A stretch of 64,000 nt of DNA from Patescibacteria group bacterium (GTDB lineage Bacteria; Patescibacteriota; JABMPQ01; JAQVVF01), in NCBI GenBank assembly GCA_041662665.1, contig JBAZSC010000001.1, positions 129,511 to 193,510 of the forward strand, read 5' to 3'. How positions within the stretch are numbered: the stretch's first letter is position 1; each line of letters starts with the position of its first letter. The position numbers and the translations under genes are program-made. A model generated the notes under the pieces. That model made no database searches. It was not told the DNA's origin and worked only from the letters and a program-made list of their open reading frames with translations. Of this stretch, positions 5,852-55,123 are shown piece by piece.

Positions 5852-5869
5852 ATGCACTTTTATCCTAAT

Positions 5870-5895
5870 AGAGCAGTTTATGCTCTTTTTTTATT
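5870..5895 (+). terminator. rho-independent terminator AGAGCAgtttaTGCTCT + T7 (cassette C)
   Basis: Third copy of the terminator module. Confidence 0.6.
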
Positions 5896-5944
5896 TTTAA
5901 AAATTTATTATAATAAAATTAATTTAAAAAATAAGGAGGGAAAA

Positions 5945-8212
5945 ATGTTAAAACAAAGAAACAGTTTTAGAATATTTTGTATTTGCCTTGCCATTTTTTT
6001 GGGAGGCTTTTTTATTTGGCCAAATATTAGTTTTGCGAGTTTTCAAGATGTTATTATTAACGAACTAATGTGGATGGGATCAAGCGAATTTGGCTCAACT
6101 GATGAATGGCTGGAATTAAAAAATTTAACAAATCAAGATATTGATTTTAGTCAGACAAATTTCGCAATCTTCAAAAATGACGCAATAATGTTATCCATTA
6201 ATAATGGCTTTCTTAAGGCAAATGATTATTTTTTAATTTCCAGAAAAGATAAAGATAATTCTATTTTAAATATTAATCCTGATTTAGTTGCATCTTTTAC
6301 ATTAAATAATACTGAAACAAATTATAAATTGTATGATTCTGGAAATAATTTAATTGATGAAATTAAAGCGCCATTAGCTGGTCTTAATAATGAAACAAAA
6401 GTTTCAATGGAAAGAAATCAAGAGCCAGACAATGGTTTGCTTGCAACGGACTGGCATAATGCGCAAACAAAAATTAATTTAGATGAAAATTCAACTGCAC
6501 TAGCAACTCCAAAATCAGAAAATAGCCAGACTCAACAACAGCCAGAAATTTTTCCAGATCAAATATTTATTAATGAAATTCTGCCAAATCCCAAAGATTC
6601 AGATGATGCTGAATTTATTGAGCTTTATAATAATAATTCATTTGAAGTTGATTTATTAAATTGGCAAATTGGCGATAGCACAACTTCTCGTTACATAATC
6701 AAAGCTTCTGATTTCGCAGACACAAAAATTAAATCTAAAAATTATTTTCTTTTGCCAAAATCAATTACTAATTTAACATTAAATAATGATTTAGATTCTG
6801 TAAAAATTTATCAGCCAAATCAAAATTTATTAAATCAAATTGATTATCAAAATTGTTTAGAAGGTCAAAGCTATAACAAACTTAGCGATAATAATTGGCA
6901 ATGGTCAACGACTTTAACGCCAAATTCAGCAAATATAATTACAACGCCAACTGAAATTATTGATGATCAAAATAATAATCCAGTTGAAATAAAAGAGGAA
7001 GAATTAACAATTCCAGCTGGTCCATATTCTAAAAAAATAATTATTACCGAATTTTTGCCAAATCCAAAAGGATCAGATTCAGAATTAAAAGGCGAATTTA
7101 TAGAAATAAAAAATGTTGATTCAAAAAATATAGATCTCTATGGCTGGTACATTGATGATCAAAAAGATGGTTCAACGCCTTATCAAATAAAAAATCATTT
7201 GCAATTAAAACCAAATCAATATTATGTTTTTTATAAAGGCGAAACAAAATTATCTTTAAATAATTCTAATGAATCTGCCAGAATTTTATTGCCAGACAAA
7301 AAAGTTCTGCAAGAAATAAAATTTACAGGCACTGCAAAAGAAGCCGAGTCTTACGCGCTCAAAGATAATAAATGGCAATGGACAACGACTTTAACGCCTG
7401 GCAAAGATAACATTATAAAACAACAAAACAACGAAACAACAAAACAAGACGAAAACACCGAAACACCAGAACAAAAAAACACCGAAACAAACGTCATGAC
7501 AATCAAAGAAGTTCGCGGTTTAAAACGTTATGACACTTTAAAAACAACTGGCATTGTTATTGTTCCTCCAAAAACAATTTCTCAAACTTCATTCTATATT
7601 CAAGACGAAACAGCTGGCATCCAAATTTATTTTTCCAAAAAAGATTTTCCAAATTTAAAATTAGGCGACAAAATTGAAGTTAGCGGAAAATTATCAGAAG
7701 CCTCAAATGAAAAAAGAATTTTAATTGCTAGCAAAGACGATTTTAAAATTTTAGCCAATAATCAAAATTTGAAGCCTGCGCAAATTGAAACTGGCAAAGT
7801 TTCTGAAGATTTGGAAGGAGAATTTGTCATAACTTCTGGCCAATTAGAAAAATCAGTTGGTGGAACATTCTATATCAATGATGGTTCAAAGACTCTCAAA
7901 GTTTATATTCCAACAGATTCGAAAATAGAAAAACCGAAATTAAAAAAAGGCGATTGGGTAACAGTTCAAGGCATTATCAGCGAGACATCAAGCGGTTATC
8001 GTTTAATTCCTCGTTTTACAAGCGACATCAAAGCTGGAAAATTTTCTTTAAATCCAAGTCTTGGTCTAACCCAAATTCCAAAAGCCGGAGCAGATTCCAA
8101 AATATTTCTAATTTTATCTTTTGCAATCATTTTAATTTATTTATCAAAAGTATATGCCAAAAGCATTAGAACGAAAATTAAAGAAACAAGCCAAGAAAAA
8201 AGGTCTAGGTAA
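5945..8212 (+). CDS. surface-anchored protein with lamin-tail-domain (LTD) repeats and a C-terminal OB-fold-like region; possible extracellular DNA-binding protein
   Basis: ATG at 5945 lies 5 nt after AAGGAGGG. Signal peptide LAIFLGGFFIWPNISFA. Three LTD-like segments (INELMWMGSSEFGSTDEWLELKN; INEILPNPKDSDDAEFIELYN; ITEFLPNPKGSDSELKGEFIEIKN). The C-terminal third (YIQDETAGIQIYF...WVTVQGII) looks like an OB fold, followed by a terminal TM anchor. No nuclease catalytic domain was seen. Confidence 0.6.
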   Translation: MLKQRNSFRIFCICLAIFLGGFFIWPNISFASFQDVIINELMWMGSSEFGSTDEWLELKNLTNQDIDFSQTNFAIFKNDAIMLSINNGFLKANDYFLISRKDKDNSILNINPDLVASFTLNNTETNYKLYDSGNNLIDEIKAPLAGLNNETKVSMERNQEPDNGLLATDWHNAQTKINLDENSTALATPKSENSQTQQQPEIFPDQIFINEILPNPKDSDDAEFIELYNNNSFEVDLLNWQIGDSTTSRYIIKASDFADTKIKSKNYFLLPKSITNLTLNNDLDSVKIYQPNQNLLNQIDYQNCLEGQSYNKLSDNNWQWSTTLTPNSANIITTPTEIIDDQNNNPVEIKEEELTIPAGPYSKKIIITEFLPNPKGSDSELKGEFIEIKNVDSKNIDLYGWYIDDQKDGSTPYQIKNHLQLKPNQYYVFYKGETKLSLNNSNESARILLPDKKVLQEIKFTGTAKEAESYALKDNKWQWTTTLTPGKDNIIKQQNNETTKQDENTETPEQKNTETNVMTIKEVRGLKRYDTLKTTGIVIVPPKTISQTSFYIQDETAGIQIYFSKKDFPNLKLGDKIEVSGKLSEASNEKRILIASKDDFKILANNQNLKPAQIETGKVSEDLEGEFVITSGQLEKSVGGTFYINDGSKTLKVYIPTDSKIEKPKLKKGDWVTVQGIISETSSGYRLIPRFTSDIKAGKFSLNPSLGLTQIPKAGADSKIFLILSFAIILIYLSKVYAKSIRTKIKETSQEKRSR

Positions 8213-21860: not shown

Positions 21861-22973
21861 ATGTATCTTTCTTCTCTTCAACTTAAAAATTTTCGCAATT
21901 ACAAAGATTTTGAATCAAGTTTCACCAATGGCTTGATTATTTTGACTGGCCAGAATGCTTCCGGAAAAACTAATTTATTAGAAGCAGTTGAATTATTGTC
22001 ATTATCAAAATCTTTTCGTGCCAGGTCAGAATACGATTTAATTTTATTTGGTATGGATTTCGCCAAAATTTTAGGAACATCACAGAAAAATAATCACCAA
22101 ACAAAATTAGATATTACTATTGATTCATTAACTTCCAAAAATCAAAAAGTAATTAAAATTGATGGTTTAAAAAGTCGCGCTTTTGATTTGATCGGCGAAT
22201 TAGTTACTGTACTTTTTTCTCCAGAAGATTTGAATTTAGTTAATTCAGCGCCACAACTTCGCCGACGTTATTTAGATGTTGTCATTTGCCAGATTAATAA
22301 AGACTATTGCCGAAATTTGTCCGAATACAAAAAAGTTTTAATTAATCGAAATCAGCTTTTAGCTAATATCAAAGATGGTTATGCAAAAAAAGAGGAATTA
22401 AGTTTTTGGAATGAAAAATTAATTGATTTAGGAACAAGGATTATTATCGAACGCCAAAAAACTTTACAATTTTTTAATACTAAATTGTCAGAAATTTACA
22501 ATGATATCTGCGATACTAAAGATCAAAAACTTCGTATAATTTATCTACCAAATTTGCCTTTGTTAAAAGATTCAGACATCAAAAAATTATTTGAACAAGA
22601 ATTAAATAATAAATACGAAAGAGAAATTTATAAAACTTACACTTTAGTTGGTCCGCATCGAGATAATTTTGTTTTTGAACTTAATAAAAAGAGATTAGCC
22701 ATCTTTGGTTCGCGAGGTGAATATCGCAGCGCAATATTAGCTTTAAAATCTGCAGAATTAGATTTTATTGAACAAAGCTTGGGAGAACGACCGATTCTTT
22801 TGCTTGATGATGTTTTTTCTGAATTAGATGAAAAAAGACGCAATCACATGTTTGATTTAGTCAGACGCCAGCAAACTTTTATCACTTCTGCTGATTTTGT
22901 CGGACTTGAAGTTGGTTTTGTTAGAGATGCGCAAGTACTTCAAATCAAAAATGGAGAAATAACGAATAAATAA
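21861..22973 (+). CDS. recF: DNA replication and repair protein RecF
   Basis: LQLKNFRNYKDFESSF...GQNASGKTNLLEAVELL (Walker A). SMC-like ABC ATPase, 370 aa. Confidence 0.85.
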   Translation: MYLSSLQLKNFRNYKDFESSFTNGLIILTGQNASGKTNLLEAVELLSLSKSFRARSEYDLILFGMDFAKILGTSQKNNHQTKLDITIDSLTSKNQKVIKIDGLKSRAFDLIGELVTVLFSPEDLNLVNSAPQLRRRYLDVVICQINKDYCRNLSEYKKVLINRNQLLANIKDGYAKKEELSFWNEKLIDLGTRIIIERQKTLQFFNTKLSEIYNDICDTKDQKLRIIYLPNLPLLKDSDIKKLFEQELNNKYEREIYKTYTLVGPHRDNFVFELNKKRLAIFGSRGEYRSAILALKSAELDFIEQSLGERPILLLDDVFSELDEKRRNHMFDLVRRQQTFITSADFVGLEVGFVRDAQVLQIKNGEITNK

Positions 22974-22974
22974 C

Positions 22975-23075
22975 AAAATCCAAATTCCAAACAAATCACA
23001 AATAACAAACGACAAATCGTCGATTTTGTAATTTGGATTTTGTAATTTGTTTGGAATTTGGTATTTGTAATTTAT
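22975..23075. repeat. intergenic composite palindrome, 'caaatcccaaat' family (copy 1)
   Basis: ccaaattccaaacaaatcacaaataacaaacgacaaatcgtcgattttgtaatttggattttgtaatttgtttggaatttgg is a long imperfect inverted repeat. The same sequence family recurs at 26252-26360, 37489-37612, 48279-48330/48700-48762 and 50612-50715. Confidence 0.7.
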
Positions 23076-23081
23076 TTCGAG

Positions 23082-24293: not shown

Positions 24294-26252
24294 ATGAACA
24301 TATCAACTTTAGCAAAAAAATTAGGTTACCATAGCCAAGAAATGCGCAAGATGATTGAGGCAATGGGATATCGACTTCGACCAACAGCGTCGAAGATTTC
24401 TGATAAAAAAGCAAAAGAAATTACCAAAAAAGTAGAAAAGCTAGAAAAGGAAAAAACTCTAGAAATGAAAGAAGAACAGAAAAAAGTTGAAAAAGCCAAA
24501 GAACCAAAAAAACTTTATGTCGCCCAAACTATTACAGTTAAGGATTTCGCACAAGTTTTAGAAATGGAAGTTACTGATGTCATTAGACAATTGATCCAGG
24601 AAGGCATCATGGCAACAATCAATGAAGAAATTGATTTTGAAACAGCGAGTATTATTGCTGAAGAATTAGGCCATAAAATTGAATTAAAAAAAGAAGAAAA
24701 AGATTTGATTAAGGAAAAAGGAGTTCGCAAACAGATTCTCGAAGATTTATCTCATGAAGAAGAAAAGAATTTAAAGCCTCGTCCTCCAGTTGTTGTTGTC
24801 ATGGGTCACGTTGATCATGGCAAGACAAAATTATTGGATGTCATTCGCGAAACAAATATTATTGCTACTGAAGCAGGAGGTATTACTCAAAAAATCGGTG
24901 CTTATCAAGCAAAATGCAATGGCAAAGTCATTACGTTTTTAGATACTCCTGGTCACGAAGCTTTCAAAGCAATGCGCGAAAGAGGTGCAAAAGTTACTGA
25001 TATGGCAATTCTTGTTGTTGCAGCTGATGACGGTGTTATGCCTCAAACAGAAGAAGCAATTGCGCATGCCAAAAATGCTGGCGTGCCAATTATTGTTGCT
25101 ATCAACAAAATAGATAAAGAAGGTGCTGATCCAGAAAAAGTAAAAAGACAGCTCGCTGATTTAGGTTTGCAACCAGAAGATTGGGGAGGCGATACAATTA
25201 TGGTTGAAATATCTGCCAAAATGAATAAAAATATCGATAAGCTTTTAGAAATGGTTTTATTGCAAGCGGAAATTTTAGAATTAAAAGCCAACCAAGAATC
25301 AAAAGCCATAGGCACAATCATTGAAGCAAACAAAGATCCCAAAAAAGGTCCAGTTGCTACAGTTTTGATTCAAAATGGAACTTTGAATTTGGGCGATTAT
25401 GTTACTTGTGGCAGTATCTATGGAAAAATCAAGGCAATGGAAAATTTCTTAGGCAAAAGAATAAATCATGCTAAGCCATCAACTCCAGTTCAAATTTTAG
25501 GTCTTACAGCAGTTCCAGATTCTGGCGATATTTTGCAAGAAGAAAAATCCAAAGAAGCAGCTCGAGAAAAAATTGCCAAAATCGCAAAAGCAGAAATCAA
25601 GATTAAACGCAATTTGACTCCAGAAGAAGAAAGAAAAATTAAAAAATTAAATATAATTTTAATTGCTGATTTTTATGGATCTCTTGAAGCAATTATTGAT
25701 GAGCTAAACAAAATCAATTCCAAGCAAGTTATGCCTCAAATCATTGATTATTCTGCTGGCAAGATTACTGAATCAAATGTCATGAATGCTCAATCTTCAA
25801 ATGCAATTATTTTTGGTTTTAATTCTAAGCCAACAACTGTTGCATCTCGTCTTGCCGAAGATAAGCATGTCAAAATATTTTCCTACGATATTATTTACGA
25901 ATTAATTGACGAAATCAAAAAACAATTGAGTTCTTTGATCGAGCCAGAAGTCATTAAGACAAAATTAGGCAAACTTAATGTTTTAGCAATTTTCAGATCT
26001 GAAAAGAAAAGAAAAATTATTGGCGGCAGAGTCTTGTCTGGCTTCCTAGCAAAAGATTCAATTGTAAAAATAATCAGAGAAGATGTAGAAATTGGCCAAG
26101 GAAAAATTACTACTGTTCAAAAAAATATGGCTGATGTACAAAAGGTAGAAGCAGGTTCAGAATGTGGAATGTCAATTGATACGACTGTCAAAGTTAAAGA
26201 AGGTGACGTGATTGAAGCTTGGAAAGAAGAAATCAAAAAAATCACTTTATAA
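24294..26252 (+). CDS. infB: translation initiation factor IF-2
   Basis: G-domain VVVVMGHVDHGKTKLLD, DTPGHEAF and NKIDK motifs. 652 aa with a short N-terminal region. Confidence 0.9.
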   Translation: MNISTLAKKLGYHSQEMRKMIEAMGYRLRPTASKISDKKAKEITKKVEKLEKEKTLEMKEEQKKVEKAKEPKKLYVAQTITVKDFAQVLEMEVTDVIRQLIQEGIMATINEEIDFETASIIAEELGHKIELKKEEKDLIKEKGVRKQILEDLSHEEEKNLKPRPPVVVVMGHVDHGKTKLLDVIRETNIIATEAGGITQKIGAYQAKCNGKVITFLDTPGHEAFKAMRERGAKVTDMAILVVAADDGVMPQTEEAIAHAKNAGVPIIVAINKIDKEGADPEKVKRQLADLGLQPEDWGGDTIMVEISAKMNKNIDKLLEMVLLQAEILELKANQESKAIGTIIEANKDPKKGPVATVLIQNGTLNLGDYVTCGSIYGKIKAMENFLGKRINHAKPSTPVQILGLTAVPDSGDILQEEKSKEAAREKIAKIAKAEIKIKRNLTPEEERKIKKLNIILIADFYGSLEAIIDELNKINSKQVMPQIIDYSAGKITESNVMNAQSSNAIIFGFNSKPTTVASRLAEDKHVKIFSYDIIYELIDEIKKQLSSLIEPEVIKTKLGKLNVLAIFRSEKKRKIIGGRVLSGFLAKDSIVKIIREDVEIGQGKITTVQKNMADVQKVEAGSECGMSIDTTVKVKEGDVIEAWKEEIKKITL

Positions 26253-26360
26253 ATCCCAAATCCCAAAAAACAAACAAATAACAAATTACAAATCACAATC
26301 CGTCGACTTTGTAATTTGTTATTTGGGATTTGTTTGGAGTTTAGAATTTGTAATTTTACG
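26252..26360. repeat. intergenic composite palindrome, 'caaatcccaaat' family (copy 2)
   Basis: aaatcccaaatcccaaaaaacaaacaaataacaaattacaaatcacaatccgtcgactttgtaatttgttatttgggatttgtttgg, lying between infB and rbfA. Confidence 0.7.
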
Positions 26361-26693: not shown

Positions 26694-26811
26694 GAGAATC
26701 TAGAATCTTGAATTTAGAATCTAGAATAGAATAATGAATTCAGAATTTAAGAATTCTATATTCCTTATTCTATATTCATTCCAGATTCCAGATTCTAAAT
26801 TCCAGATTCTC

Positions 26812-27795
26812 ATGTTTAAATTTATCGACATTCAAATAAATCGCGCATTATATTTAATCAAAAAAGCAGAAAATATCCTGATTATTTGCCATCGCAAGCC
26901 GGATGCTGATACTATTGGATCTGCATTAGCTTTGGGTGATATTTTAGAAAAACAAAATAAAAAAATTGAATACGCTTGCCAGGATCAAATCCCTAGCAAG
27001 TTTTTTTTCCTAAAAAATGCCGACAAAATAAAAAAGATTGATGAAATTTTAAAGAATTTTATTAATTACAAGTTACTAATTACTTTGGATTGTGGAAGTT
27101 TCGAACAGACAGGTCTACACAACTTTTTTAGCATCAATGAATTTAAAACGCCTATCATAAATATTGATCATCATCATGATAATCCGCATTACGGAAAACT
27201 CAATATTATTGAAGCTAATGCCTCTTCAACTTCAGAAATTGTCCACAATTTTTTGCTAAAAATGAATGTTGATTTAGATAAAAATATTTCAACAAGTTTA
27301 TTAAATGGAATTTTTGGCGATACTGATAGTTTCAAAAATCCAAATACATCTCATGACACTTTAAAAACAACATCAGACCTTTTGGCATCAGGTGCAAATT
27401 TAAAAGAAATTACCAAAAATACTTTGCAAGACAAATCTTTGTCAACTTTAAGACTTTGGGGTAAGATATTGTCAGATATAAAAAAGAACAAAAAACTTGG
27501 CATAGTTTATGCTGTCATTACTAAAAAAGATTTGCAAGAATGCAACGCCAAATCAGAAGATTTAGAAGGCATTGCCAACTTTTTAAATTCAATTCCAGAT
27601 GTTAAGGCCTCATTAGTTTTATCAGAAAATGAAAAAGGCGAGATCAAAGGTTCATTTCGAACTTTGCATGATCATATTGATGTCTCAAAGTTAGCTCGCA
27701 GTTTAGGTGGCGGAGGACATAAAAAAGCTGCTGGATTTACATTGCCTGGCAGATTAATAAAAGAAGATAATGAAATCAAAATAAATCTCGAGTAA
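26812..27795 (+). CDS. nrnA: DHH/DHHA1 phosphoesterase NrnA-like (nanoRNase / pAp phosphatase)
   Basis: ILIICHRKPDADTIGSALAL, IDHHHDNP (DHH motif) and GGGGHKKAAGF (DHHA1 GGGH motif). The internal Met at 26812 (MFKFIDIQ) was chosen because the track start lies inside an intergenic palindrome. Confidence 0.7.
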   Translation: MFKFIDIQINRALYLIKKAENILIICHRKPDADTIGSALALGDILEKQNKKIEYACQDQIPSKFFFLKNADKIKKIDEILKNFINYKLLITLDCGSFEQTGLHNFFSINEFKTPIINIDHHHDNPHYGKLNIIEANASSTSEIVHNFLLKMNVDLDKNISTSLLNGIFGDTDSFKNPNTSHDTLKTTSDLLASGANLKEITKNTLQDKSLSTLRLWGKILSDIKKNKKLGIVYAVITKKDLQECNAKSEDLEGIANFLNSIPDVKASLVLSENEKGEIKGSFRTLHDHIDVSKLARSLGGGGHKKAAGFTLPGRLIKEDNEIKINLE

Positions 27796-28276
27796 AATTA
27801 ATAAAATAAGTAAAATTAATAAAACGACGAAATAAAAACAAAAAAATGGCAAAAATAAATCGAATAGAAGATTTAGATGCATGGCAAGAGGCAAGAAAAC
27901 TTTGTCAAGGAATATATCTTATTACAAATCATTTTCCAAAATATGAACTTTATAATATTATGAAGCATTTGAGAGAAAATGGTCGAGGAGTACCTGCTAA
28001 TATTGCAGAAGGATTTGGCAGATATTTTTTCAAGGAAAAATTAAGATTTTATGGAATAGCTAAGGGTTGTTTAGAAGAGATGAGAAATGATATTTATTTA
28101 TCTTATGACAGTAAATATATTAACAAAGAAATATTCAACAAATTTATCAATCAGATTAATAAAGTTTGCAAACAAATTAATGGACTGATTTCTATTACCC
28201 TTCAATTTATGAAAAAGCATTAAAAATTTCTATTAATTTTATTTCTTATTAATTTTACTAATCTTACTTATTTTAC
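27793..28276 (+). mobile_element. IVS-like element: four-helix-bundle gene carried inside an intergenic inverted repeat
   Basis: Left arm gtaaaattaataaaataagtaaaattaataaaa (about 27793-27825) and right arm ttctattaattttatttcttattaattttactaatcttacttatttta (about 28228-28276) are mutually inverted. They flank the CDS 27846..28223. Confidence 0.45.
27846..28223 (+). CDS. four-helix-bundle protein (family typically encoded in 23S rRNA intervening sequences)
   Basis: LDAWQEARKLCQGIYLITNHFPKYELYNIMKHLRENGRGVPANIAEGFGRYFFKEKLRFYGIAKGCLEEM carries the family hallmarks FP..E.Y.L..Q.RR...S...NIAEG.GR......FL.IA.GS..E. Confidence 0.65.
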   Translation: MAKINRIEDLDAWQEARKLCQGIYLITNHFPKYELYNIMKHLRENGRGVPANIAEGFGRYFFKEKLRFYGIAKGCLEEMRNDIYLSYDSKYINKEIFNKFINQINKVCKQINGLISITLQFMKKH

Positions 28277-28281: not shown

Positions 28282-29043
28282 ATGTTCAGCAGCATTTCTG
28301 CATATTTTTCCACATTTACATTAATAGATTATATTACAACAATTTTAGACATTGGAATTGTTGCTGTTTTGATTTACTTTGCTTTCGCATTTGTCAAAGG
28401 TACTAAAGCTACAAGAATAATTTATGGCATAATAATTTTAAGTGTTGTTGTAGTTATTGGCAGATTACTAAATTTGCAAACTTTGAATTGGGTCTTGTCG
28501 CATTTAACATTATTAATTTTAGTCGCTATACCAGTTGTCTTTCAGCCAGAATTAAGAAGAGCTCTAGAGAGATTAGGCCGTGCCAATATTTTTGGCAAAA
28601 CAAAAAAAGAGTCAACAAAAATCAACGATATTATTGAAGCAATTGAAATTTTAAAGAAAAACAGAATTGGCGCATTAATAGTAATTCAAAGAAAAACTGG
28701 CTTATTAGAATATGTTGAATCAGGAACAGAGCTAAATGCTAATTTATCAATTGCATTATTGCTAAATATTTTCTTTCCAAATTCTCCATTGCATGACGGT
28801 GCAGTCATAATTTTAGGCAACAAGATTCTAGCTGCTGGCTGTATGTTGCCACTTACAGAAGGCGAATATTCAATGACCTACGGCACTCGCCACAAAGCAG
28901 CAATTGGCGTTACCGAAAATACAGATGCCATTGCCTTAGTTGTTTCTGAAGAAAGAGGCGAGGTCTCGATTGCCATTGACGGACATTTGGAGGAAAAAGT
29001 TGGAACGGAAAAATTAGCGAATAAGCTTGAACAGCTTGTTTAG
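28282..29043 (+). CDS. cdaA: diadenylate cyclase CdaA (c-di-AMP synthase)
   Basis: N-terminal TM helices. DAC-domain motifs HDGAVIILGNKI and GTRHKAAIGVTE (cf. DGA / RHRAA). Confidence 0.85.
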   Translation: MFSSISAYFSTFTLIDYITTILDIGIVAVLIYFAFAFVKGTKATRIIYGIIILSVVVVIGRLLNLQTLNWVLSHLTLLILVAIPVVFQPELRRALERLGRANIFGKTKKESTKINDIIEAIEILKKNRIGALIVIQRKTGLLEYVESGTELNANLSIALLLNIFFPNSPLHDGAVIILGNKILAAGCMLPLTEGEYSMTYGTRHKAAIGVTENTDAIALVVSEERGEVSIAIDGHLEEKVGTEKLANKLEQLV

Positions 29044-29157
29044 AATTTTCAATTACCAATTTCCAATTTTCAAATAATATTCAATGGACAATTTTCATTG
29101 GAAATTGATCATTGGTAATTGATTGTAAATTGATAATTGGAAATTGAAAATTATTTT

Positions 29158-30398: not shown

Positions 30399-30971
30399 AT
30401 GTTAATTCCCACAGTCATCGAAAAATCAAATTATGGCGAACGTGCTTATGATATTTATTCCAGACTATTAAAAGATAGAATCGTTTTTTTAGGCGGAGAA
30501 ATTGATGATAATTTAGCTAATACAGTTATTGCTCAATTATTATTTCTTGAATCCGAAGACAAAACAAAAGATATTAAATTATACATTAATTCAAATGGCG
30601 GATCAGTTAGCGCTGGACTAGCAATCTATGATACAATGCAATATATCAAGCCAGATGTGTCAACAATTTGTGTTGGCTTGGCTGCATCAATGGGAGCAAC
30701 TCTTCTTTTAGCTGGTGCTAAAAATAAAAGAATGGCTTTGCCAAATGCTGAAATAATGTTGCATCAAATTATGGGTGGAGTACAAGGCCAGGCATCTGAT
30801 ATTGAAATTACAGCCAAACAAATTTTAAAGCTAAAAGAAAGATTAAATAAAATTATTGCTAAACATACCAATCAGAAATTAACTCAAATTGAACAAGATA
30901 CAGATCGTGATTATTATATGACTTCTGATGAAGCTAAAAAATATGGAATCGTTGATCAAATTATAAAATAA
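30399..30971 (+). CDS. clpP: ATP-dependent Clp protease proteolytic subunit
   Basis: [24 protein letters not shown]...[38 protein letters not shown], with Ser/His catalytic context. Confidence 0.9.
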
Positions 30972-31063
30972 TACAAATATACAAATCTACGCAAATGATG
31001 CGAATATGCAAATTCGTATATTTGTATCATTTGCATAAATTCGTAAATTAGTATTATAATTTT

Positions 31064-34873: not shown

Positions 34874-35662
34874 ATGATAATTTTATTCTTCGGTGATATC
34901 GTTGGCAGAGCTGGTCGTTCTGCAATTAAAAAAATATTACCAGAACTAAAAACTAAATATAATCCAGATTTAATAATTGCTAATGGCGAAAATCTTGCCC
35001 ATGGTCTTGGTATTACAAAAAAAACAGTTCAAGAAGTTTTAGATTCAGGTGTTGATGTTTTAACATCTGGAAATCATATTTATGACAAGACAGAAGGCAT
35101 TGAAATGTTACAGCAAGATAGTAATTTGCCAATTATCAGACCAGCAAACTACCCATTAGATAATCCAGGCAAAAGATATATCATTAAACAAGTTCGGACT
35201 AAAAAAGTTTTGATCACAAATGTTTTAGGCCGAGTTTTTATCAAAGAAGATTTAGATTGTCCATTTAAGACAATTGATAAAATTTTAGAAGAAAATAAAA
35301 ATGAAAAAATAGATTTCAGTATCGTTGATTTTCACAAAGAAGCAACTTCAGAAGTCAAAGCTTTAGGTTTTTATTTAGATGGCAAAGTCTCGGTAGTACT
35401 AGGCACTCATACTCATGTTCAAACTTCTGATGAACAAATTTTAGAAAAAGGAACTGCTTATATTTCTGATGTTGGCATGGTTGGACTAAAGGATTCTGTT
35501 TTAGGCGTTCAAAAAGAAAAAGTTATTGATCAATTCTTGACTCAAATGCCTCATCGATGGGAAGTTGATGAAAGCGGAAAATGCATAATCAATGCTGTTG
35601 TCCTTAATTTTGAAAACGACAAAAAAACAATCACAAGAATTAATGAAGAAGTAGAGATCTAA
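34874..35662 (+). CDS. ymdB: YmdB-like metallophosphoesterase (TIGR00282 family; 2',3'-cyclic-nucleotide phosphodiesterase)
   Basis: MIILFFGDIVGRAGRSAIKKILPELKTKYNPDLIIANGENLAHGLGIT...GNH...GTHTHVQTSDEQILEKGTAYISDVGMVG closely parallels B. subtilis YmdB. Located in the rny neighbourhood. Confidence 0.85.
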   Translation: MIILFFGDIVGRAGRSAIKKILPELKTKYNPDLIIANGENLAHGLGITKKTVQEVLDSGVDVLTSGNHIYDKTEGIEMLQQDSNLPIIRPANYPLDNPGKRYIIKQVRTKKVLITNVLGRVFIKEDLDCPFKTIDKILEENKNEKIDFSIVDFHKEATSEVKALGFYLDGKVSVVLGTHTHVQTSDEQILEKGTAYISDVGMVGLKDSVLGVQKEKVIDQFLTQMPHRWEVDESGKCIINAVVLNFENDKKTITRINEEVEI

Positions 35663-35829
35663 TTTCTAATTTCTATTAAATTTTCAATGAATAATTTCTA
35701 AACGCAGAGCTAATTGCTCTGTTTTAAATTGTTCTTTGCGCTAAAATAAGTTAAAATAACACTAAGGTTTTAAAATTTATAATTAGAAATTTAATAAAAA
35801 TTGAAAATTGAAAATTGTAATACAAATTT

Positions 35830-37424: not shown

Positions 37425-37488
37425 GATTTTATTTTTATATATTTAAAAAGGCGAGAATCAATTCTCGTCTTTTTTAAAAAACCAAAAA

Positions 37489-37612
37489 AAATCCCAAATA
37501 CCAAATCCCAAACAAATTACAATAACCAAATTACAAAATTTTAAGAATAAGTTTTGTGATTTGTAATTTGTTAATTGTTTGGAATTTGGGATTTGTAATT
37601 TCGACGTTTAAT
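37489..37612. repeat. intergenic composite palindrome, 'caaatcccaaat' family (copy 3)
   Basis: atcccaaataccaaatcccaaacaaattacaataaccaaattacaaaatttt...gttttgtgatttgtaatttgttaattgtttggaatttgggatttgtaattt. Confidence 0.7.
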
Positions 37613-37627
37613 TGTTAAAATCATTTC

Positions 37628-39769: not shown

Positions 39770-39950
39770 ACCCAGCTTTAGCTGGGGTTCGAAAAACTTT
39801 AGTTTTCGTCGGCGTTCTACTGCAACTTTAGTTGCACAAACCCCAGCTGAAGCTGGGTCATAAACGAGTTACTACCCAGCTTTTAGCTGGGGATTAAAAA
39901 TTTTGGATTGCAAAATTTTTACTGCAACTTTAGTTGCAGTAGTAGAAATT
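39770..39950. repeat. cluster of five short hairpins sharing a cTTTAg loop
   Basis: cccagctttagctgggg occurs three times and tgcaactttagttgca twice, arranged A-B-A-A-B between pcrA and rsmA. Confidence 0.6.
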
Positions 39951-42990: not shown

Positions 42991-43148
42991 AATTAATAAA
43001 ATAGTTTTAGTCAGTTTCTGTGTTTTCTGCGTTAGATTCTGCGTCATTCTGCGAAAACGTTTTAAGCGCAGAAAAACGCAGAATCTAACGCAGAGTCAAA
43101 AATTTTTATAACAAAATTTTTGACGCAGAAAAAATAGCCACAATCAAC

Positions 43149-45413: not shown

Positions 45414-46835
45414 ATGCAAAGATTAAGTTTAACACAATTAGTCGATCAAAATATTTTTGACAAGATTTTCAAACAAGCACAAGACTGTGAGCGTTTTAGT
45501 TTTCAAGGAGAATATGGTCCAATAGCTTATCAGATTATTTTGACAATTGATAATGCGTTGCAAAAATTCCCTCAATTGAAATCAGAAAATCCAGAAATTT
45601 ACAAAAAATATAATGATCTAAATATTCATCTAAAATTCCATTGCCAAGAATATCTGCCAGATGATAATGATGTTTTAGATCTCTATGAAAAACATTTAGC
45701 TGATGCTTTGAAAAGAAATATGAATTTAGAAAGATGGCTTCGAAACAAGCTTATCTCAATGCGGATGACTTATCGCGATGAATACGTGAACAAAATAAAG
45801 GCAATAATCAAAAAAAACCAGCAAAAAATTGGTGAAAAAGAAATCATAATTTCTAATAAAAAATATCAGCCAACAATTGAAAATTGGATCAAAGATTATG
45901 AATATGAAGCTAATCCCGGCATCCATTCTTTAGTTGAAAGAAATAATTATTTTTTCCAATCCAAAAATCCTAGAAATTTGAATGAGCAAGAAAAGAAAGA
46001 ATTAAAAAAACTTTTGCAGCTTTTTGATCGAATGCAATTAAAAATAACTGACGCTGGAAGTTTAACTGGTTATTCAGCATCAATGTATGGCATTGAACTC
46101 AAAAAAACAGTTGATTTAGGCGCTTTTACAACCAAAGAGCAAGAGCATATTGATAAGGGAATCAAACAGCCTGCATCAAGTGTCAAGCCAATCCCATTCC
46201 CAACTAAAAAAACAGAACAGCGAGAAAAATTATTAGCAGAAAACAAAAAACTTGCCGAAAGAGAAATGCTTGGTGTAGTAGATATTAAAAAACTTCAGGC
46301 AGCTGAACCAAGCAATAGATTTATTGCATCTATAAAGAGAATCGGCAAACCAATAAAAAAAACAGAACCAAAAATTGAAGAAACAAAAGTAATAAAAGCA
46401 GTTCCAGAAAAAGAAGTTGTCAAAGAAATTGCAAAGCCAAAAACAGAAGAATTACCAAATCCTCCAAAAAAAGTTTTTCACAAAGAACACAAAATTTTAA
46501 CCCCAGCAAAGCCAGTCATTGTTTCCAAACAAATCAACAGAATTCAAAATCTTACTATTTTAGAATTCAGAGATCTAGGTACTGATGCAAAACAATCCGC
46601 GCAGAAATTATTAAATAATCTTCGCGATATTGCCAAGACTCATGAAGAGAGAAAAATTGCTCAAGAAAATTTCATGAAAAGTCCGCTTTACAAATTATAT
46701 GAGGCAATGACAAATCAAAGCGAAACAGAAAAAAAATCAATCAGCCAAGTTTCAAAAGATAGGCAAGATCAGAAAATGGAATATTTGTCGGAAGATGAAT
46801 ACATCGCGGTGAAAAGTATAAGCAAGCTTATCTAA
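45414..46835 (+). CDS. hypothetical Lys/Glu-rich soluble protein (473 aa)
   Basis: ORF inside the T4SS-like locus. No recognised motif. Confidence 0.45.
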   Translation: MQRLSLTQLVDQNIFDKIFKQAQDCERFSFQGEYGPIAYQIILTIDNALQKFPQLKSENPEIYKKYNDLNIHLKFHCQEYLPDDNDVLDLYEKHLADALKRNMNLERWLRNKLISMRMTYRDEYVNKIKAIIKKNQQKIGEKEIIISNKKYQPTIENWIKDYEYEANPGIHSLVERNNYFFQSKNPRNLNEQEKKELKKLLQLFDRMQLKITDAGSLTGYSASMYGIELKKTVDLGAFTTKEQEHIDKGIKQPASSVKPIPFPTKKTEQREKLLAENKKLAEREMLGVVDIKKLQAAEPSNRFIASIKRIGKPIKKTEPKIEETKVIKAVPEKEVVKEIAKPKTEELPNPPKKVFHKEHKILTPAKPVIVSKQINRIQNLTILEFRDLGTDAKQSAQKLLNNLRDIAKTHEERKIAQENFMKSPLYKLYEAMTNQSETEKKSISQVSKDRQDQKMEYLSEDEYIAVKSISKLI

Positions 46836-46949
46836 TTTCCAATTAACAATTTCCAATTTTCAATAAATTACCAATTTTCAATTTACAATGAATTCTCGCA
46901 GTTTTGAAAATTGGTTATTGGAAATTTATTGTAAATTGGTCATTGAAAA

Positions 46950-47393
46950 TTGAAAACTAATTTTATGCAGTATCCCATTCCTCAATTTGTCGAAATAGAA
47001 GACCAGATTATCGGCCCTCTGACTTTAAAACAATTTTTTTATTTATTAGGTGGCGGAATATTTTTACTGATTGCTTGGTCATTTGTTGATCTGACATTAT
47101 TCATTTTTCTAGCAATAATTGTTGCTGGAATAACAATGCCATTAGCTTTTGTCAAACCTTATGGCAGACCATTGACTGATTATCTTTCTGCAGTTTTCAA
47201 ATACATTTTAGGTCCAAAAATATTAGTCTGGCATAAAAGTGGAAGAGCTCCGAGAGTAAAAGCCTATGATCTTAATAAGAAAAAATCTGGTCCAGAAAAA
47301 ATCACCATTGGCGAAAAAAAATATACACCAAGCTCTATTCATCGTCTTGCAAGACAACTTGATTTTAAGACGGTCATGAGCGAAAAAAAATAA
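46950..47393 (+). CDS. small two-TM membrane protein, VirB3/PrgI-like candidate
   Basis: 147 aa. Two adjacent hydrophobic helices (LLGGGIFLLIAWSFVDLTLFIFLAIIVAGITMPLAF). Lies immediately upstream of the VirB4-like gene, as VirB3/PrgI does. Confidence 0.4.
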   Translation: MKTNFMQYPIPQFVEIEDQIIGPLTLKQFFYLLGGGIFLLIAWSFVDLTLFIFLAIIVAGITMPLAFVKPYGRPLTDYLSAVFKYILGPKILVWHKSGRAPRVKAYDLNKKKSGPEKITIGEKKYTPSSIHRLARQLDFKTVMSEKK

Positions 47394-47533
47394 TCATAAA
47401 TGATCAATTTCCAATTCTCAATTTTCAATAAGTTGCCAATGAACAATTTTCAATGGCTACTTCGTAAGTTTTGAAAATTGGTTAATTGATAATTTATTGG
47501 AAATTGTAAATTGATAATTGAAAATTAAAACTG

Positions 47534-48277
47534 ATGTCCAAAAAACAAGACAAGAAAAAAAATAGTGCTGAAACAAAGCAACAAGAAGAAACAATGCTTT
47601 CAAGCAAAGCAGTCAAGAAAGAAGAAGAGACTACTCAGAAGTTTTTAAAATTGTCTGGAATTAGAGATGGAATAGTAATTTTAAATAATAAAGCTCTACG
47701 AGCAATTGTAATGTGTTCATCAATTAATTTTGCTTTAATGTCTGAAGATGAACAAAAAGCAAAAGTTTTTGGCTATCAAGATTTTTTAAATTCATTAAAT
47801 TTTCCAGTTGAGATTGTCATTCAGACCAGAAAATTAAATATTGGAAGTTACTTAGAAAAAGTCAAAGAAGCAGAAAGAATGCAGGAAAACGAATTATTGA
47901 GAATCCAGACAGCAGAATATGCTGAATTTATCAAATCTTTAGTTGAACTAGCAAATATCACAACTTCTCATTATTATGTTGTTGTCCCATATTCTCCTCC
48001 TGGCATTGAAGCAACAGAAGGAATTTTAGATAAACTAAAAGGCATAATTTCACCAGCTTCAAAAATAAAAGAAGAGCAAGTTGGTTTTCAAAAGCAACAA
48101 GAAGAGCTTTTGCTTCGTGTTAATTCAGTTATCAGTGGTTTAGGCGGAGTTGGAATTCAATCAGCACAGCTAAATACTCAGGAAGTAGTTGAGCTATTAT
48201 ATTCATGGTATAATCCAGATGAGAGCACCACTGAGATTTTAGGAGAATTAGAGAAGCTCAAGATAGAGCAGGCATAA
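47534..48277 (+). CDS. VirB4/TrsE-like ATPase, N-terminal domain encoded as a separate ORF
   Basis: FLKLSGIRDGIVILNNKALRAIVMCSSINFALMSEDEQKAKVFGYQDFLNSLNFPVEIVIQTRKL matches the N-terminal region of Gram-positive VirB4 homologs (pattern I..DG.I......F.K.Y.L.DINF.....EEQ...F..F..FLNS....V.FQI). In homologs this region is contiguous with the segment that opens the next ORF. Confidence 0.55.
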   Translation: MSKKQDKKKNSAETKQQEETMLSSKAVKKEEETTQKFLKLSGIRDGIVILNNKALRAIVMCSSINFALMSEDEQKAKVFGYQDFLNSLNFPVEIVIQTRKLNIGSYLEKVKEAERMQENELLRIQTAEYAEFIKSLVELANITTSHYYVVVPYSPPGIEATEGILDKLKGIISPASKIKEEQVGFQKQQEELLLRVNSVISGLGGVGIQSAQLNTQEVVELLYSWYNPDESTTEILGELEKLKIEQA

Positions 48278-48278
48278 A

Positions 48279-48762
48279 AAAAATCCCAAATCCCAAATTC
48301 CAAACAAATTACAAATCACAAAAAACAAAATTGCCCGAACAAAATAAAACTAACAAATTATATAATCTCGAAGACCGAACTTTAGAATTTAGTAAAAGAG
48401 TTGCCAATATGTGCAACGCTTTGCCTAAAAATTATATTAATATTGTTTATATAAATCAGATTTTAAGATCAGGGAGTTCGATAGGTGCTAATTACATAGA
48501 AGCAAATGAATCATTAGGAAAAAAAGATTTTAAAATGAAAGTAAGAATTGCTAGAAAAGAAGCAAAAGAAACAACTTATTGGCTGAATTTAATAATAGAT
48601 GCTAATCCAGAATTTAGAAAAAGAATTGAACCATTATTACAAGAATCAATCGAAATAAGAAATATTTTATCAACAATAATAAACAAATCTAATTAATTTT
48701 TTTTGTAATTTGTATTTTGTATATTGTAATTTGTTTGGAATTTGGGATTTGTAATTTATAAT
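48279..48762 (+). mobile_element. IVS-like element: four-helix-bundle gene carried inside a 'caaatcccaaat'-family inverted repeat, inserted at the junction of the split VirB4 gene
   Basis: Left arm aaaatcccaaatcccaaattccaaacaaattacaaatcacaa (about 48279-48330). Right arm ttgtaatttgtattttgtatattgtaatttgtttggaatttgggatttgtaattt (about 48700-48762). Both flank CDS 48331..48696. Confidence 0.45.
48331..48696 (+). CDS. four-helix-bundle protein (23S rRNA IVS-type family), second copy
   Basis: LEFSKRVANMCNALPKNYINIVYINQILRSGSSIGANYIEANESLGKKDFKMKVRIARKEAKETTYWLNLI. Shares the family pattern with the 27846 gene. Non-ATG (TTG) start per the track. Confidence 0.55.
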   Translation: MPEQNKTNKLYNLEDRTLEFSKRVANMCNALPKNYINIVYINQILRSGSSIGANYIEANESLGKKDFKMKVRIARKEAKETTYWLNLIIDANPEFRKRIEPLLQESIEIRNILSTIINKSN

Positions 48763-50313
48763 AACGTTATGCAGGACAAAGATTTGCCAGTTGGCAAAAA
48801 AAATATCGAAAATTTGACTGAAGATGAGCAACAAGAAATCCTTAAGGCTGAAGAAATTTACAGAAAGGGTCTGGTTTCGATTCGCGATATTATTGCGCCA
48901 AGTGCATTGCAGGTTAATCCAAATTTTCTTAAATTAGGCGACAAGTTTGTCAGAACTTTGTTTATTTTTACATATCCTCGTTTTGTAAATACTGGCTGGT
49001 TTGCTCCAGTTATCAACATGAACATCGAAGCTGATATGGCGATGTATATTAATCCAGTTAGCTCCGAAAAAATCCTAAAAACTTTAAAAAATAAAGTTGG
49101 ACAAATCCAATCCACAATGGCAGGCAAGCAAGAAAAAGGCGAAGTTAGAGATCCAATGCTAGAAACAGCACTCAATGATGTTGAAGAACTTCGCGATCGT
49201 TTGATACAAGGCACAGAAAGATTTTTTCATTTTGCATTATATATCACAATTTACGAGAATTCTGAAAAAAAATTAGAGCAAACAACCAAAGAAATTGAAG
49301 ATTTACTTGGTCAAAGATTAATTTATTCCAAGCGAGCTTTTTTTCAAGCTGAACAAGGATTCAATACTACAACTCCGCTAGGTTTAGATGAACTAGGAGT
49401 CCTCAACAATTTTAATACATCTCCATTATCAACTAGTTTTCCATTTGTTTCTTCAGAATTAACTTCCGATGAAGGTGTTCTTTATGGAATTAATCGTCAT
49501 AATAATAGTCTAATTTTATTCGATCGTTTTACTTTGCCAAATGCTAATTCAGTTGTATTTGCAACTTCTGGTGCTGGAAAAAGTTATGCTGTAAAATTAG
49601 AAATTTTAAGATCTTTAATGTTTGGAACAGAAGTTATCGTCATTGATCCAGAAAATGAATATAAATATTTATGTGAATCAGTTGGAGGAACATTTTTAAA
49701 AATGTCTCTAGAATCAGAATACAGATTAAATCCATTTGATTTGCCAGTAGCAATTTCCGGCATGAAAACAAAAGACATTATTAGATCTGCAGTTATCAAT
49801 ATCAAAGGCTTATTAAGAATCATGTTGGGCCGTCTTACTAAAGAAGAAGATGCTTTGTTAGATAGAGGAATTATTGAGACATATGCTAAAAAAGATATTA
49901 CTGCTGAATCAGATTTGTCAAAAATAGAAGTTCCGACAATGAAAGATCTGCAAGAAATTCTAGAAGGCATGCAAGGAGCAGAGGATATAGTTCCAAGAAT
50001 TAAAAAATATACTGAAGGCACTTTTGCTGGATTATTAAATCAAGCCACAAATGTCAGAATTGATAATCCATTTGTCGTTTTTAGCATCAGAGATCTAGAA
50101 GATGAGTTACGTCCAATCGCAATGTATGTTATTCTTAATCATATCTGGAATATTGTTAGAGCAGAGATGAGAAAAAGAATTTTGGTAGTTGATGAAGCTT
50201 GGTGGATGATGCAATACGAAGAATCTGCCAGATTTATGTACAGTATTGCCAAAAGAGGCCGAAAATATTATCTTGGCACAACCACAATTTCTCAGATGTT
50301 AATGATTTTCTAA
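48742..50313 (+). CDS. VirB4/TrsE-like ATPase, central ATPase portion (frame changes near 50300)
   Basis: DIIAPSALQVNPNFLKLGDKFVRTLFIFTYPRFVNTGWFAPVIN (conserved VirB4 segment). Walker A VVFATSGAGKSYAVKLE. Walker B/arginine region ILVVDEAWWMM...AKRGRKYYLGTTTISQ. The likely start is the Met at about 48769, which has no SD. The ORF terminates 2 codons after the conserved TQ. Confidence 0.7.
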   Translation: MGFVIYNNVMQDKDLPVGKKNIENLTEDEQQEILKAEEIYRKGLVSIRDIIAPSALQVNPNFLKLGDKFVRTLFIFTYPRFVNTGWFAPVINMNIEADMAMYINPVSSEKILKTLKNKVGQIQSTMAGKQEKGEVRDPMLETALNDVEELRDRLIQGTERFFHFALYITIYENSEKKLEQTTKEIEDLLGQRLIYSKRAFFQAEQGFNTTTPLGLDELGVLNNFNTSPLSTSFPFVSSELTSDEGVLYGINRHNNSLILFDRFTLPNANSVVFATSGAGKSYAVKLEILRSLMFGTEVIVIDPENEYKYLCESVGGTFLKMSLESEYRLNPFDLPVAISGMKTKDIIRSAVINIKGLLRIMLGRLTKEEDALLDRGIIETYAKKDITAESDLSKIEVPTMKDLQEILEGMQGAEDIVPRIKKYTEGTFAGLLNQATNVRIDNPFVVFSIRDLEDELRPIAMYVILNHIWNIVRAEMRKRILVVDEAWWMMQYEESARFMYSIAKRGRKYYLGTTTISQMLMIF

Positions 50314-50603
50314 CATCAGATTATGGTAAAGCAATTGTTACTAATTCCGCTTTGCAATTATTATTAAAACAATCTCCAGCCTCAATTGATTTATTGAAAA
50401 AAACTTTTTATCTAACAGAAGAAGAAAAATATTTACTTTTAGAATCAGATGTTGGTGAAGGTATTTTCTTTGCAGGTAGCAAACATGTTGCAATTAAAAT
50501 AGTCGCTTCATATTCAGAAGACCAAATCATTACCACAGATCCAAAACAATTATTAGAATTAGAACAAGCCAAGAAGAATTATGAACAAGAACAAAATGTT
50601 TAA
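50199..50603 (+). CDS. VirB4/TrsE-like ATPase, C-terminal portion in the -1 frame
   Basis: From ...DVNDFLTSDYGKAIVTNSALQLLLKQ onward this frame continues the VirB4 C-terminus. It overlaps the previous ORF by 115 nt. This means a frameshift, an authentic pseudogene, or a sequencing indel near 50300-50315. Confidence 0.55.
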   Translation: MVDDAIRRICQIYVQYCQKRPKILSWHNHNFSDVNDFLTSDYGKAIVTNSALQLLLKQSPASIDLLKKTFYLTEEEKYLLLESDVGEGIFFAGSKHVAIKIVASYSEDQIITTDPKQLLELEQAKKNYEQEQNV

Positions 50604-50611
50604 AAACAAAA

Positions 50612-50715
50612 GCCACAAATCCCAAATTCCAAACAAATTTCAAATTACAAATCACAAAATTGCAAGTTTGTTTATTGTGATTTGTGATTTGTTTGGATTT
50701 TGGAATTTGTAATTT
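50612..50715. repeat. intergenic composite palindrome, 'caaatcccaaat' family (copy 6)
   Basis: ccacaaatcccaaattccaaacaaatttcaaattacaaatcacaaaattgcaagtttgtttattgtgatttgtgatttgtttggattttggaatttgtaattt. Confidence 0.7.
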
Positions 50716-50741
50716 ATTTCTATATTTAATAAAATAAAAAT

Positions 50742-51410
50742 ATGTTTAAAAAATCTTACATCATTTTAGCTCTAACATTAATTGCACTTGCAACAACTGC
50801 CTTCGGTTGTAAAAAAGCCGACACAAATACTAATCAGCCAGCCAATCAAAATGCAAATGTTGTTGCCAACAATACAAACGTGGTTGCAACAAATGATAAT
50901 GAGTTTCCGATTGTAAATGCCAATGAAGCATTAAATGCAAATGAAAATGTTACACTTAATGTCAATGAAACAGAAAATGCAGTTACAGAAAATTTAAATG
51001 CCATCGAAAATCAAGGCGAAATAAAAGTTGAGCAAGACCAAGAAAAAACAGTTTTAGCTTTAGCTTCAAAAATTGCTGAAATTTACGGCACTTTTACTAA
51101 CAAGGACAAAGAAGCCTACAAAAATCTAAAAACAATCAAAACTTACTCAACAGAAAAAATGAGCGCTTTTCTTGATGAACAAATTGCCAAACCGATAGAT
51201 CCAAAAGCATCATTTTATGGTGTAACCACAAAAACAATCAGTTCTGGAATTTCTGATACAACTGATAAAGAAATGACTGCCATTGTTACAACCAAGAGAG
51301 AAGAAATCACAGCTCAAAATAACAAGCCAACTGTCAAATATCAAATTTTAAAACTTGAATTTACAAAAGTCGGTGAAGAATGGAAATTAAGCGGGGCTTT
51401 CTGGTTGTAA
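50742..51410 (+). CDS. lipoprotein (Asn/Val-rich N-terminal region)
   Basis: Signal peptide + lipobox LATTAFGC. Confidence 0.5.
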   Translation: MFKKSYIILALTLIALATTAFGCKKADTNTNQPANQNANVVANNTNVVATNDNEFPIVNANEALNANENVTLNVNETENAVTENLNAIENQGEIKVEQDQEKTVLALASKIAEIYGTFTNKDKEAYKNLKTIKTYSTEKMSAFLDEQIAKPIDPKASFYGVTTKTISSGISDTTDKEMTAIVTTKREEITAQNNKPTVKYQILKLEFTKVGEEWKLSGAFWL

Positions 51411-54984: not shown

Positions 54985-55123
54985 CGAATTTTCAATTTAT
55001 AATTTCTAATTTCTATTAAATTTTAAATAACTAATTTCTAAAGCTATCGTAGAGAAGGTTTGAAAATTTTAGCATTGAAAATTTAATAGAAATTAGGAAT
55101 TAGAAATTAGAAATTTTCTCTTT

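Follow-up and report, generated by a model that had tools for sequence, protein, structure and literature searches.

Here we describe a locus within a stretch of 64,000 nucleotides (nt) of DNA from a Patescibacteria group bacterium (assembly GCA_041662665.1, contig JBAZSC010000001.1, positions 129,511 to 193,510 of the forward strand), which is referred to as the window and numbered from its first letter. An initial annotation had read the locus as a gene for the ATPase VirB4 that is interrupted twice, once by an inverted-repeat element carrying a four-helix-bundle (4HB) gene and once by a −1 frame change. Our analysis overturns this reading: the presence of two genes is the normal state, and the frameshift amounts to one missing A. 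We consider it very likely that the region represents a normal TrsD-VirB4 operon with one assembly-level indel and with an element of the intervening sequence (IVS) type in a spacer. The operon is a type IV secretion system (T4SS) operon of the ordinary Patescibacteria kind, which comprises a VirB6-like gene, a gene of 473 amino acids (aa), PrgI/VirB3, TrsD, VirB4 and further genes. The three ATPase-related open reading frames (ORFs; 47534-48277, 48742-50313 and 50199-50603) and the 121-aa ORF (48331-48696) are all present, as are the inverted repeat, the frame change and the ATPase motifs, and their description required two small corrections.

TrsD and VirB4 as separate genes

The first of these ORFs (47534-48277, + strand, 247 aa) is a stand-alone TrsD/TraC-like gene whose product is related to one-piece VirB4 proteins in their N-terminal portion. 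Its homologues were sought in a word index of 5.8 billion proteins and by an exhaustive HMMER search of 50%-cluster representatives. The best 120 matches from the word index are all stand-alone Patescibacteria proteins of 195-364 aa, with identities from 94% down to 39%, and the best 150 cluster representatives of the 2116 HMMER matches have lengths of 125-478 aa, none of them VirB4-sized. Every one of the homologues carries the precomputed Pfam assignment PF26593, TraC-like. The likeness to the VirB4 N-terminal domain that had been proposed for this ORF is borne out by fold comparison, in which the AlphaFold model (mean predicted local distance difference test score, 74) was searched with Foldseek; the top 14 matches are all TrwK/VirB4 chains of the R388 system, and those after them fall abruptly to noise. 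The N-terminal region of the protein also matches VirB4 profiles in NCBIfam. The profile of the TrsD homologues gave nothing above noise against PDB sequences, and the link to VirB4 emerged just through fold comparison and NCBIfam.

Judged from profile alignment, TrsD and VirB4 together are colinear with the one-piece VirB4 proteins of monoderms, as had been claimed for the three ORFs. In the 752-position profile NF045971, residues 43-166 of the first ORF correspond to positions 11-134, residues 19-507 of the ATPase ORF correspond to positions 169-665, and the tail corresponds to positions 669-734. The gene lies directly upstream of virB4, and this position, together with its remote homology to the VirB4 N-terminus and its stand-alone state, is what characterizes TrsD/TraD.

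A separate TraC-like gene followed by an ATPase gene of 610-631 aa is present in the relatives L001, L004, L092 and L006, whose TrsD proteins are 91%, 93%, 75% and 58% identical to that of the window, respectively. We extended the comparison to 80 GTDB species-representative genomes, in which 78 loci were informative because the downstream DNA was present. TrsD and VirB4 occupy different stop-to-stop ORFs at all 78, whether or not a 4HB gene lies between them, and every informative Patescibacteria locus examined has a stand-alone TrsD-like gene directly upstream of a separate VirB4 of approximately 610-650 aa. Where the TrsD-VirB4 spacer is free of any 4HB gene, its length is 5 nt in L092 and 123-146 nt in L001 and L006. 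The order PrgI, TrsD, VirB4 recurs in L001, L004, L006 and L088 and on the Clostridium perfringens plasmid pJFP838A, where PrgI is followed by a TrsD-like gene and a DUF87 ATPase.

Because the two-gene state occurs in relatives with and without the element, the split was not produced by the element. The initial annotation had made its claim of an interrupted coding gene dependent on relatives not being naturally two-gene, and they are two-gene without exception at the informative loci. The headline that a VirB4 fused in the ancestor was split by the 4HB element in this lineage, which drew on the colinearity of the two ORFs with one-piece VirB4 and on the position of the element exactly between them, therefore retains a negligible probability and is refuted by the comparative data: two genes are found at the 78 loci, in relatives without the 4HB gene and in plasmids of Firmicutes, and the occupancy of the spacer varies on constant gene boundaries. 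The TrsD/VirB4 pair is either an ancient conserved fission or an unfused ancestral state, with fusion in other lineages.

The presence of TrsD beside VirB4 has already been published for Patescibacteria, with 1664 of 2272 TrsD homologues associated with VirB4 (PMC12102498). The pair corresponds to TrsD and VirB4 (TrsE) of T4SS of the mating pair formation class FATA (MPF-FATA; prototype pGO1; for Patescibacteria, PMC12102498), in which the same stand-alone protein of approximately 210-270 aa lies upstream of a VirB4 of approximately 610-650 aa, PrgI/VirB3 precedes them, and VirB6-like and pilin/SLT proteins belong to the neighbourhood, as they do in the window. We see no material difference, save that the spacers in the subclade of the window are unusually long and filled with hairpins. 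Patescibacteria trsD and virB4 should not be flagged as a broken gene in annotation.

The missing base in virB4

The VirB4 gene (48769-50603, + strand, CD1110 family) is intact but for one absent base. Its true start is the ATG at 48769, where the start codons of relatives also fall in the alignment, and the TTG at 48742 is within the right repeat arm of the element. The product has the Walker A motif ATSGAGKSYAV and the Walker B motif ILVVDEAWW, and the ATPase ORF matches P-loop_TraG, DUF87, AAA_10 and CagE_TrbE_VirB in Pfam. The neighbourhood is that of a VirB4 gene: PrgI is found in the window, TrbL_3 is found on the orthologous 770-795 aa proteins of relatives, and a pilin/SLT protein is present.

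The frame of the ATPase ORF ends with ...TTTISQMLMIF at the stop at 50313, five codons past the SQ and not two, as was first stated; the accompanying statement that the conserved C-terminus resumes in the −1 frame, up to 50603, is correct. The cause of the change is a single absent A at 50294/50295 (+ strand), where the relatives read TCTCAAGAT and the window reads TCTCAGAT, that is, TCT CAA GAT GTT versus TCT CA- GAT GTT in context. When 48769-50603 is aligned with L001, L002 and L004 (85.6% nucleotide identity), exactly one gap column occurs upstream of the stop codon, and the only other gap is a 3-nt difference in L004 beside the stop codon.

A homology search with the corrected VirB4 retrieved two proteins with 100% identity. 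The first, P0269 (611 aa), covers 100% of the query and is encoded by a contig of 2539 nt (L095, in ENA and JGI), every base of which matches positions 48519-51057 of the window except for one extra A. The second, P0275 (514 aa), covers 83% of the query and lies on a metagenome-assembled genome (MAG) contig of 645,164 nt; it is the truncated call of the window itself. Against NF045971, for which the cut-off is 325 bits, P0269 scores 352.1 bits (residues 19-576 over positions 169-734), whereas the truncated ATPase ORF alone scores 301.3 bits. The ratio of nonsynonymous to synonymous substitution rates (dN/dS) is 0.017-0.023 in the VirB4 tail and 0.028-0.034 in the rest of the gene.

The otherwise identical contig with the A and the low dN/dS of the tail speak for an indel error or a minor variant and against decay or recoding. 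The most likely cause of the frameshift is, in our view, an indel from assembly or consensus calling, or else a minor population variant, and the organism very probably makes an intact VirB4 of 611 aa. Among the explanations first offered, an indel error near 50300 fits best. A pseudogenized ATPase in decay, also offered, is at odds with a solitary 1-nt deletion, a constrained tail and an intact allele on an otherwise identical contig. In the absence of reads to the contrary, this VirB4 is best regarded as intact.

A side observation concerns the independent short-read contigs L094 and L095, both otherwise identical to the window: the former ends and the latter begins at 48519-48520, in an A7 run inside the 4HB ORF. 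The break suggests an assembly-graph break from repeats or from strain heterogeneity in the element.

The element in the TrsD-VirB4 spacer

The element (48281-48757) occupies the spacer between the two genes; it begins 4 nt past the trsD stop codon (48277) and ends 11 nt before the virB4 start (48769). It is a resident of an intergenic spacer and does not lie inside a coding sequence. Its left arm (48281-48329) and right arm (48709-48757) are 49 nt long and 88% complementary to each other, and both consist of degenerate tandem heptamers of the CAAATCC type (lag-7 autocorrelation of 0.70-0.73, with 0.73 in the left arm). Folding of the complete element gives −92 kcal/mol, with the long stem closed. 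Between the arms is an ORF of 121 aa (48331-48696, + strand), which is co-oriented with the operon and belongs to the 23S_rRNA_IVP/S23p family of 4HB proteins (PF05635, E 4.7e-17; TIGR02436, E 2.7e-23). A PF05635/TIGR02436 ORF, an enclosing inverted repeat with a long stem, and tandem heptamers in that stem are the features of an IVS-type element, and the element is a member of the known, widespread IVS/S23p class. Location in ribosomal RNA (rRNA), which also characterizes that class, does not apply here, as an Rfam search of the window at gathering thresholds gave no match.

The window contains 10 occurrences of the arm motif, compared with 0.02 expected by chance. Four hairpins of the family of the element lack the ORF and are referred to as cargo-less, and such multi-copy, noncoding, intergenic hairpins of one family resemble MITEs (miniature inverted-repeat transposable elements) and repetitive extragenic palindromic (REP) sequences. 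Three of them, of the CAAAT family, were recognized by arm-motif scan, inverted repeat and fold (22965-23076, 26247-26356 and 37483-37614). The fourth, of the CAAATCC family, is located directly past the VirB4 stop codon (50615-50710) and is 84-86% identical to the arms of the element (−39.7 kcal/mol, z −7.0).

Turnover among relatives and selection on the ORF

The three spacers around trsD and virB4 differ in content from genome to genome. In the window, the PrgI-TrsD spacer contains an empty hairpin, the TrsD-VirB4 spacer contains the 4HB element, and the spacer between VirB4 and the next gene contains an empty hairpin. In L001, the 4HB element is in the PrgI-TrsD spacer and the other two spacers contain empty hairpins, and in L004 all three spacers contain a 4HB element. 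In L006, a hairpin is present between TrsD and VirB4, and the spacers on either side of the pair contain none. In L088, the first spacer contains an empty hairpin and the second a 4HB element; the third is outside the coverage. The boundaries of the neighbouring genes remain unchanged while the occupancy varies, and the arm families at one given spacer differ between genomes. The 4HB proteins at the same spacer of the window and L004 are 40% identical, whereas the adjacent TrsD proteins are 89-93% identical, and the best cross-match of 4HB proteins (64%) links different spacers. Because stems with or without an ORF come and go in the spacers of close relatives, they behave as selfish or semi-domesticated spacer elements.

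Comparison with the closest relative, L088, which has an orthologous element (approximately 90% nucleotide identity) with an intact ORF (approximately 92% protein identity), yields a dN/dS of 0.10, and sequence divergence of this kind points to purifying selection on the 4HB ORF. Over positions 48331-48693, the ORF has a dS of 0.41, and the adjacent trsD has a dS of 1.08. The low value for the ORF possibly reflects constraint at the nucleotide level or an exchange of the element more recent than the divergence of its flanks.

The association of the ORF with inverted repeats is general. At diverse loci of Patescibacteria, the flank inverted-repeat score is 40 or higher for 15 of 17 4HB genes and for 8 of the 617 ORFs used as controls (Mann-Whitney p 8e-11), and all 20 of the 4HB ORFs found are co-oriented with the operon.

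Weighing of the alternatives

According to the strongest alternative, the hairpins are mainly gene punctuation, either terminator and promoter modules or mRNA stabilizers, and the 4HB ORFs are incidental passengers at their tips. The positions of the hairpins accord with this proposal, since the approximately 14 long hairpins of the window begin a few bases from stop codons and extend almost to the next start codon. Two right arms also provide matches that resemble −35 and −10 boxes (TTGGAA-16-TATAAT at 48735-48762, most of which lies within the right arm of the element, and TTGTAA-17-TAAAAT at 50707-50735), and these end exactly 7 nt before ATG 48769 and ATG 50742, which would imply leaderless transcripts. 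However, such promoter-like matches are not clearly enriched (29, compared with 20.4 ± 5 in shuffles), and the promoter and terminator consensus scans of the window did not rise clearly above shuffles in general. Moreover, the hairpins are without U-tracts, whereas classic terminators are present elsewhere in the window, and the more distant L092 and L006 manage without hairpins at spacers of 5 to 23 nt. The purifying selection on the 4HB ORF and its tight linkage to such arms across phyla also count against the proposal. We consider punctuation as the main role unlikely, but it is the most serious of the competing explanations.

Several observations weigh against our own interpretation. The first ORF has zero matches in the local copy of Pfam, and its score against the TrsD/TraD model NF041427 is 23.9 bits (E 3e-5), below the cut-off of 200, so that the assignment as TrsD rests on remote homology, gene order and literature. 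No transposase or mobility gene was identified, with neither a genome-wide transposase search nor a search for target-site duplications having been made. The stability of the hairpins shows no sense-strand bias, the + strand being more stable in 6 of 12, and no G-U bias; for want of a strand bias, a role at the RNA level is not separated from one at the DNA level. Finally, there is a small probability that the frameshift is a real allele, rare or very recent in the sampled population.

In its full form, this last possibility, which we consider improbable, is that of a very recent inactivating mutation that truncates VirB4 after residue 509, adds 5 aberrant residues and marks a secretion system that is being lost. 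The deposited sequence does lack the base, and the database contains the 514-aa call from the 645-kb MAG contig; furthermore, the AA-to-A context includes no long homopolymer and so is not a classic error site. Nevertheless, the gene is intact on a 2.5-kb contig that is otherwise identical in every base, other lesions are absent, and the tail retains a dN/dS of approximately 0.02. The other T4SS genes across the compared 13 kb (approximately) are equal in length to those of relatives, and VirB4 and TrsD are both listed as essential in Ca. Southlakia epibionticum, the sole system of Patescibacteria that has been put to experimental test (PMC12102498).

We give almost no credence to a restoration of the C-terminus by programmed −1 ribosomal frameshifting or transcriptional slippage: the −1 frame does run open through the junction and codes for the conserved tail, but inspection of the bases just upstream revealed neither a slippery X XXY YYZ heptamer nor a long homopolymer, and four relatives and the identical contig are in frame at the site, so that the frame change is not conserved.

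Relation to known elements

The closest known counterparts are the IVSs of 23S rRNA with an S23p ORF, which are known from Coxiella burnetii, Leptospira and Xanthomonas (PMC4990558, citing Ralph & McClelland, 1993). In Coxiella, the S23p ORF lies in an inverted-repeat stem loop, tandem GACAGAT heptamers immediately precede the start codon, and the stem itself is the place of the RNase III cuts (PMC4990558). The window element has the same PF05635 ORF of approximately 120 aa in a stem loop, in the sense orientation to the host transcript, and both have tandem heptamers in the stem beside the start codon and a sporadic distribution that suggests mobility. The two differ in the host site, which is an intergenic spacer of a protein operon in the window and not helix 9, 25 or 45 of rRNA, and in the state of the ORF, which has a dN/dS of 0.10 in the window and was reported as decaying and probably untranslated in Coxiella (PMC4990558).

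Residence outside rRNA, which the initial annotation regarded as novel behaviour for the class, is already on record. PMC3936711 reports 23S_rRNA_IVP genes within cas loci, in one example between cmr3 and cmr2, and thus the same arrangement of a small, co-oriented 4HB gene in a tight operon gap. The genes are treated there as candidates for cas-associated functions, the passages concerned do not describe inverted-repeat or heptamer stems, and the host in the window is instead a Patescibacteria T4SS operon. Annotated 'four helix bundle protein' or 'S23 ribosomal protein' genes are also present on plasmids of Calothrix, Nostoc punctiforme, Riemerella and Picosynechococcus (L096-L099), where they are co-oriented with their neighbours in tight operon gaps; that of Picosynechococcus is located between cas10 and cmr3. 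All four have tandem heptamers in inverted arrays on their flanks, of the GGGTGTA, CAGGAGT, GGTTCAA and GGAGATA types. These arrays may be related to the short tandemly repeated repetitive (STRR) heptamers of cyanobacteria.

With REP sequences, bacterial interspersed mosaic elements (BIMEs) and MITE-like palindromes, the hairpins of the window share the multi-copy, noncoding, hairpin-forming and intergenic character and the occurrence of families within a genome. The arms are different, being degenerate tandem heptamers of approximately 50 nt and not REP units of 20-40 nt, and some copies carry the 4HB ORF. In addition, no REP-associated tyrosine transposase (RAYT) or other transposase has been identified for them, the genome not having been searched for transposases.

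We tentatively propose, at a little less than even probability, that S23p ORFs in inverted heptamer arrays form one cross-phylum class of elements that colonizes transcribed spacers, including rRNA helices, cas operons and this T4SS operon, turns over quickly and leaves cargo-less hairpins behind. The 23S rRNA IVSs would be the rRNA-resident subset, and the selected Patescibacteria protein would have a role, such as binding its own stem or helping the element to spread. The anatomy of the element, its multi-copy families, its turnover between strains and the purifying selection on its ORF are observed; a possible course of events beyond them is suggested by analogy with the 23S rRNA IVS. The element would be co-transcribed with the operon, the long stem would form in the RNA, and RNase III would cut it. 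Such cleavage could part the message of trsD from that of virB4 and set the 4HB message free. The 4HB protein itself is kept by selection.

The heptamer-stem 4HB cassettes in operon spacers across phyla are the sole part of this locus worth following up. IVS/S23p elements are rarely studied, and their occurrence in mRNA spacers, with a heptamer-stem anatomy like that of the rRNA elements, is of modest wider value. The combination of a selected ORF with strain-variable occupancy provides a tractable way into the function of these elements and their protein, a question that dates from the discovery of intervening sequences in the early 1990s.

Other hairpins and neighbouring features

According to the inverted-repeat scan and the RNA folding z-scores, approximately 14 long hairpins of several heptamer families are present in the 64 kb, with z of about −5 to −7. 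Most are AT-rich tandem heptamers with arms of approximately 30-55 nt, located in spacers between co-directional genes and starting a few bases past the upstream stop codon. The PrgI-TrsD spacer, which contains a 4HB gene in L001 and L004, is filled in the window by a cargo-less hairpin of tandem CAATTTT-type heptamers (47404-47527) with lag-7 periodicity (−41 kcal/mol, z −7.4). Further long hairpins are found at 29044-29152, 30968-31057, 35661-35809, 39770-39858, 43026-43094, 46833-46959 and 54987-55115, and those at 39770 and 43026 are richer in G+C.

A second 4HB element flanked by inverted repeats (27792-28276, + strand) has a different arm family, with a period of approximately 9 nt. Its arms (27792-27822 and 28246-28276) are 31 nt long and 87% complementary, its ORF occupies 27846-28223 (PF05635, E 2.2e-29), and it fills the spacer between the genes at 26734-27795 and 28282-29043. 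A phmmer search with one 4HB protein missed this copy at 27846, which was recovered by the inverted-repeat scan and Pfam.

One possibility that we considered for the cargo-less hairpins is that they arose by deletion and retain the start of the ORF. The homology of the CAAAT-family hairpins reaches just approximately 4 nt into the 4HB ORF, and remnants resembling ATG-GAC or ATG-AAC occur close to the tips of the CAATTTT hairpins; these sequence similarities are suggestive but not conclusive.

Among the neighbouring genes, the PrgI/VirB3-like gene (46950-47393, + strand; Pfam PrgI, E 2.3e-8) is the first of the conserved PrgI-TrsD-VirB4 trio, and the product of 55124-57031 matches SLT and T4SS_pilin.

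The genes behind the heptamer hairpins have no obvious Shine-Dalgarno sequence. Two near-identical classic terminators (AGAGCA...TGCTC followed by a T-run) are present at approximately 5388-5410 and 5871-5893, and the GTG at 5490 is preceded by a strong Shine-Dalgarno sequence of the GGAGG type; these signals near 5380-5900 indicate that the genome uses conventional signals as well. The in-frame abutting ORFs at 5468-5851 and 5852-8212 were considered as a recoding site and rejected, because a regular TGA stop stands at the junction and a terminator comes after it.

A genuine interruption of a Patescibacteria virB4 by a mobile element, at the level of protein splicing, is provided by Patescibacteria group bacterium AH-259-L07 (L060, 5696-9640), whose VirB4 ORF of 1315 aa contains an intein (Intein_splicing, 1e-19) with a LAGLIDADG endonuclease domain (LAGLIDADG_3, 2e-18).

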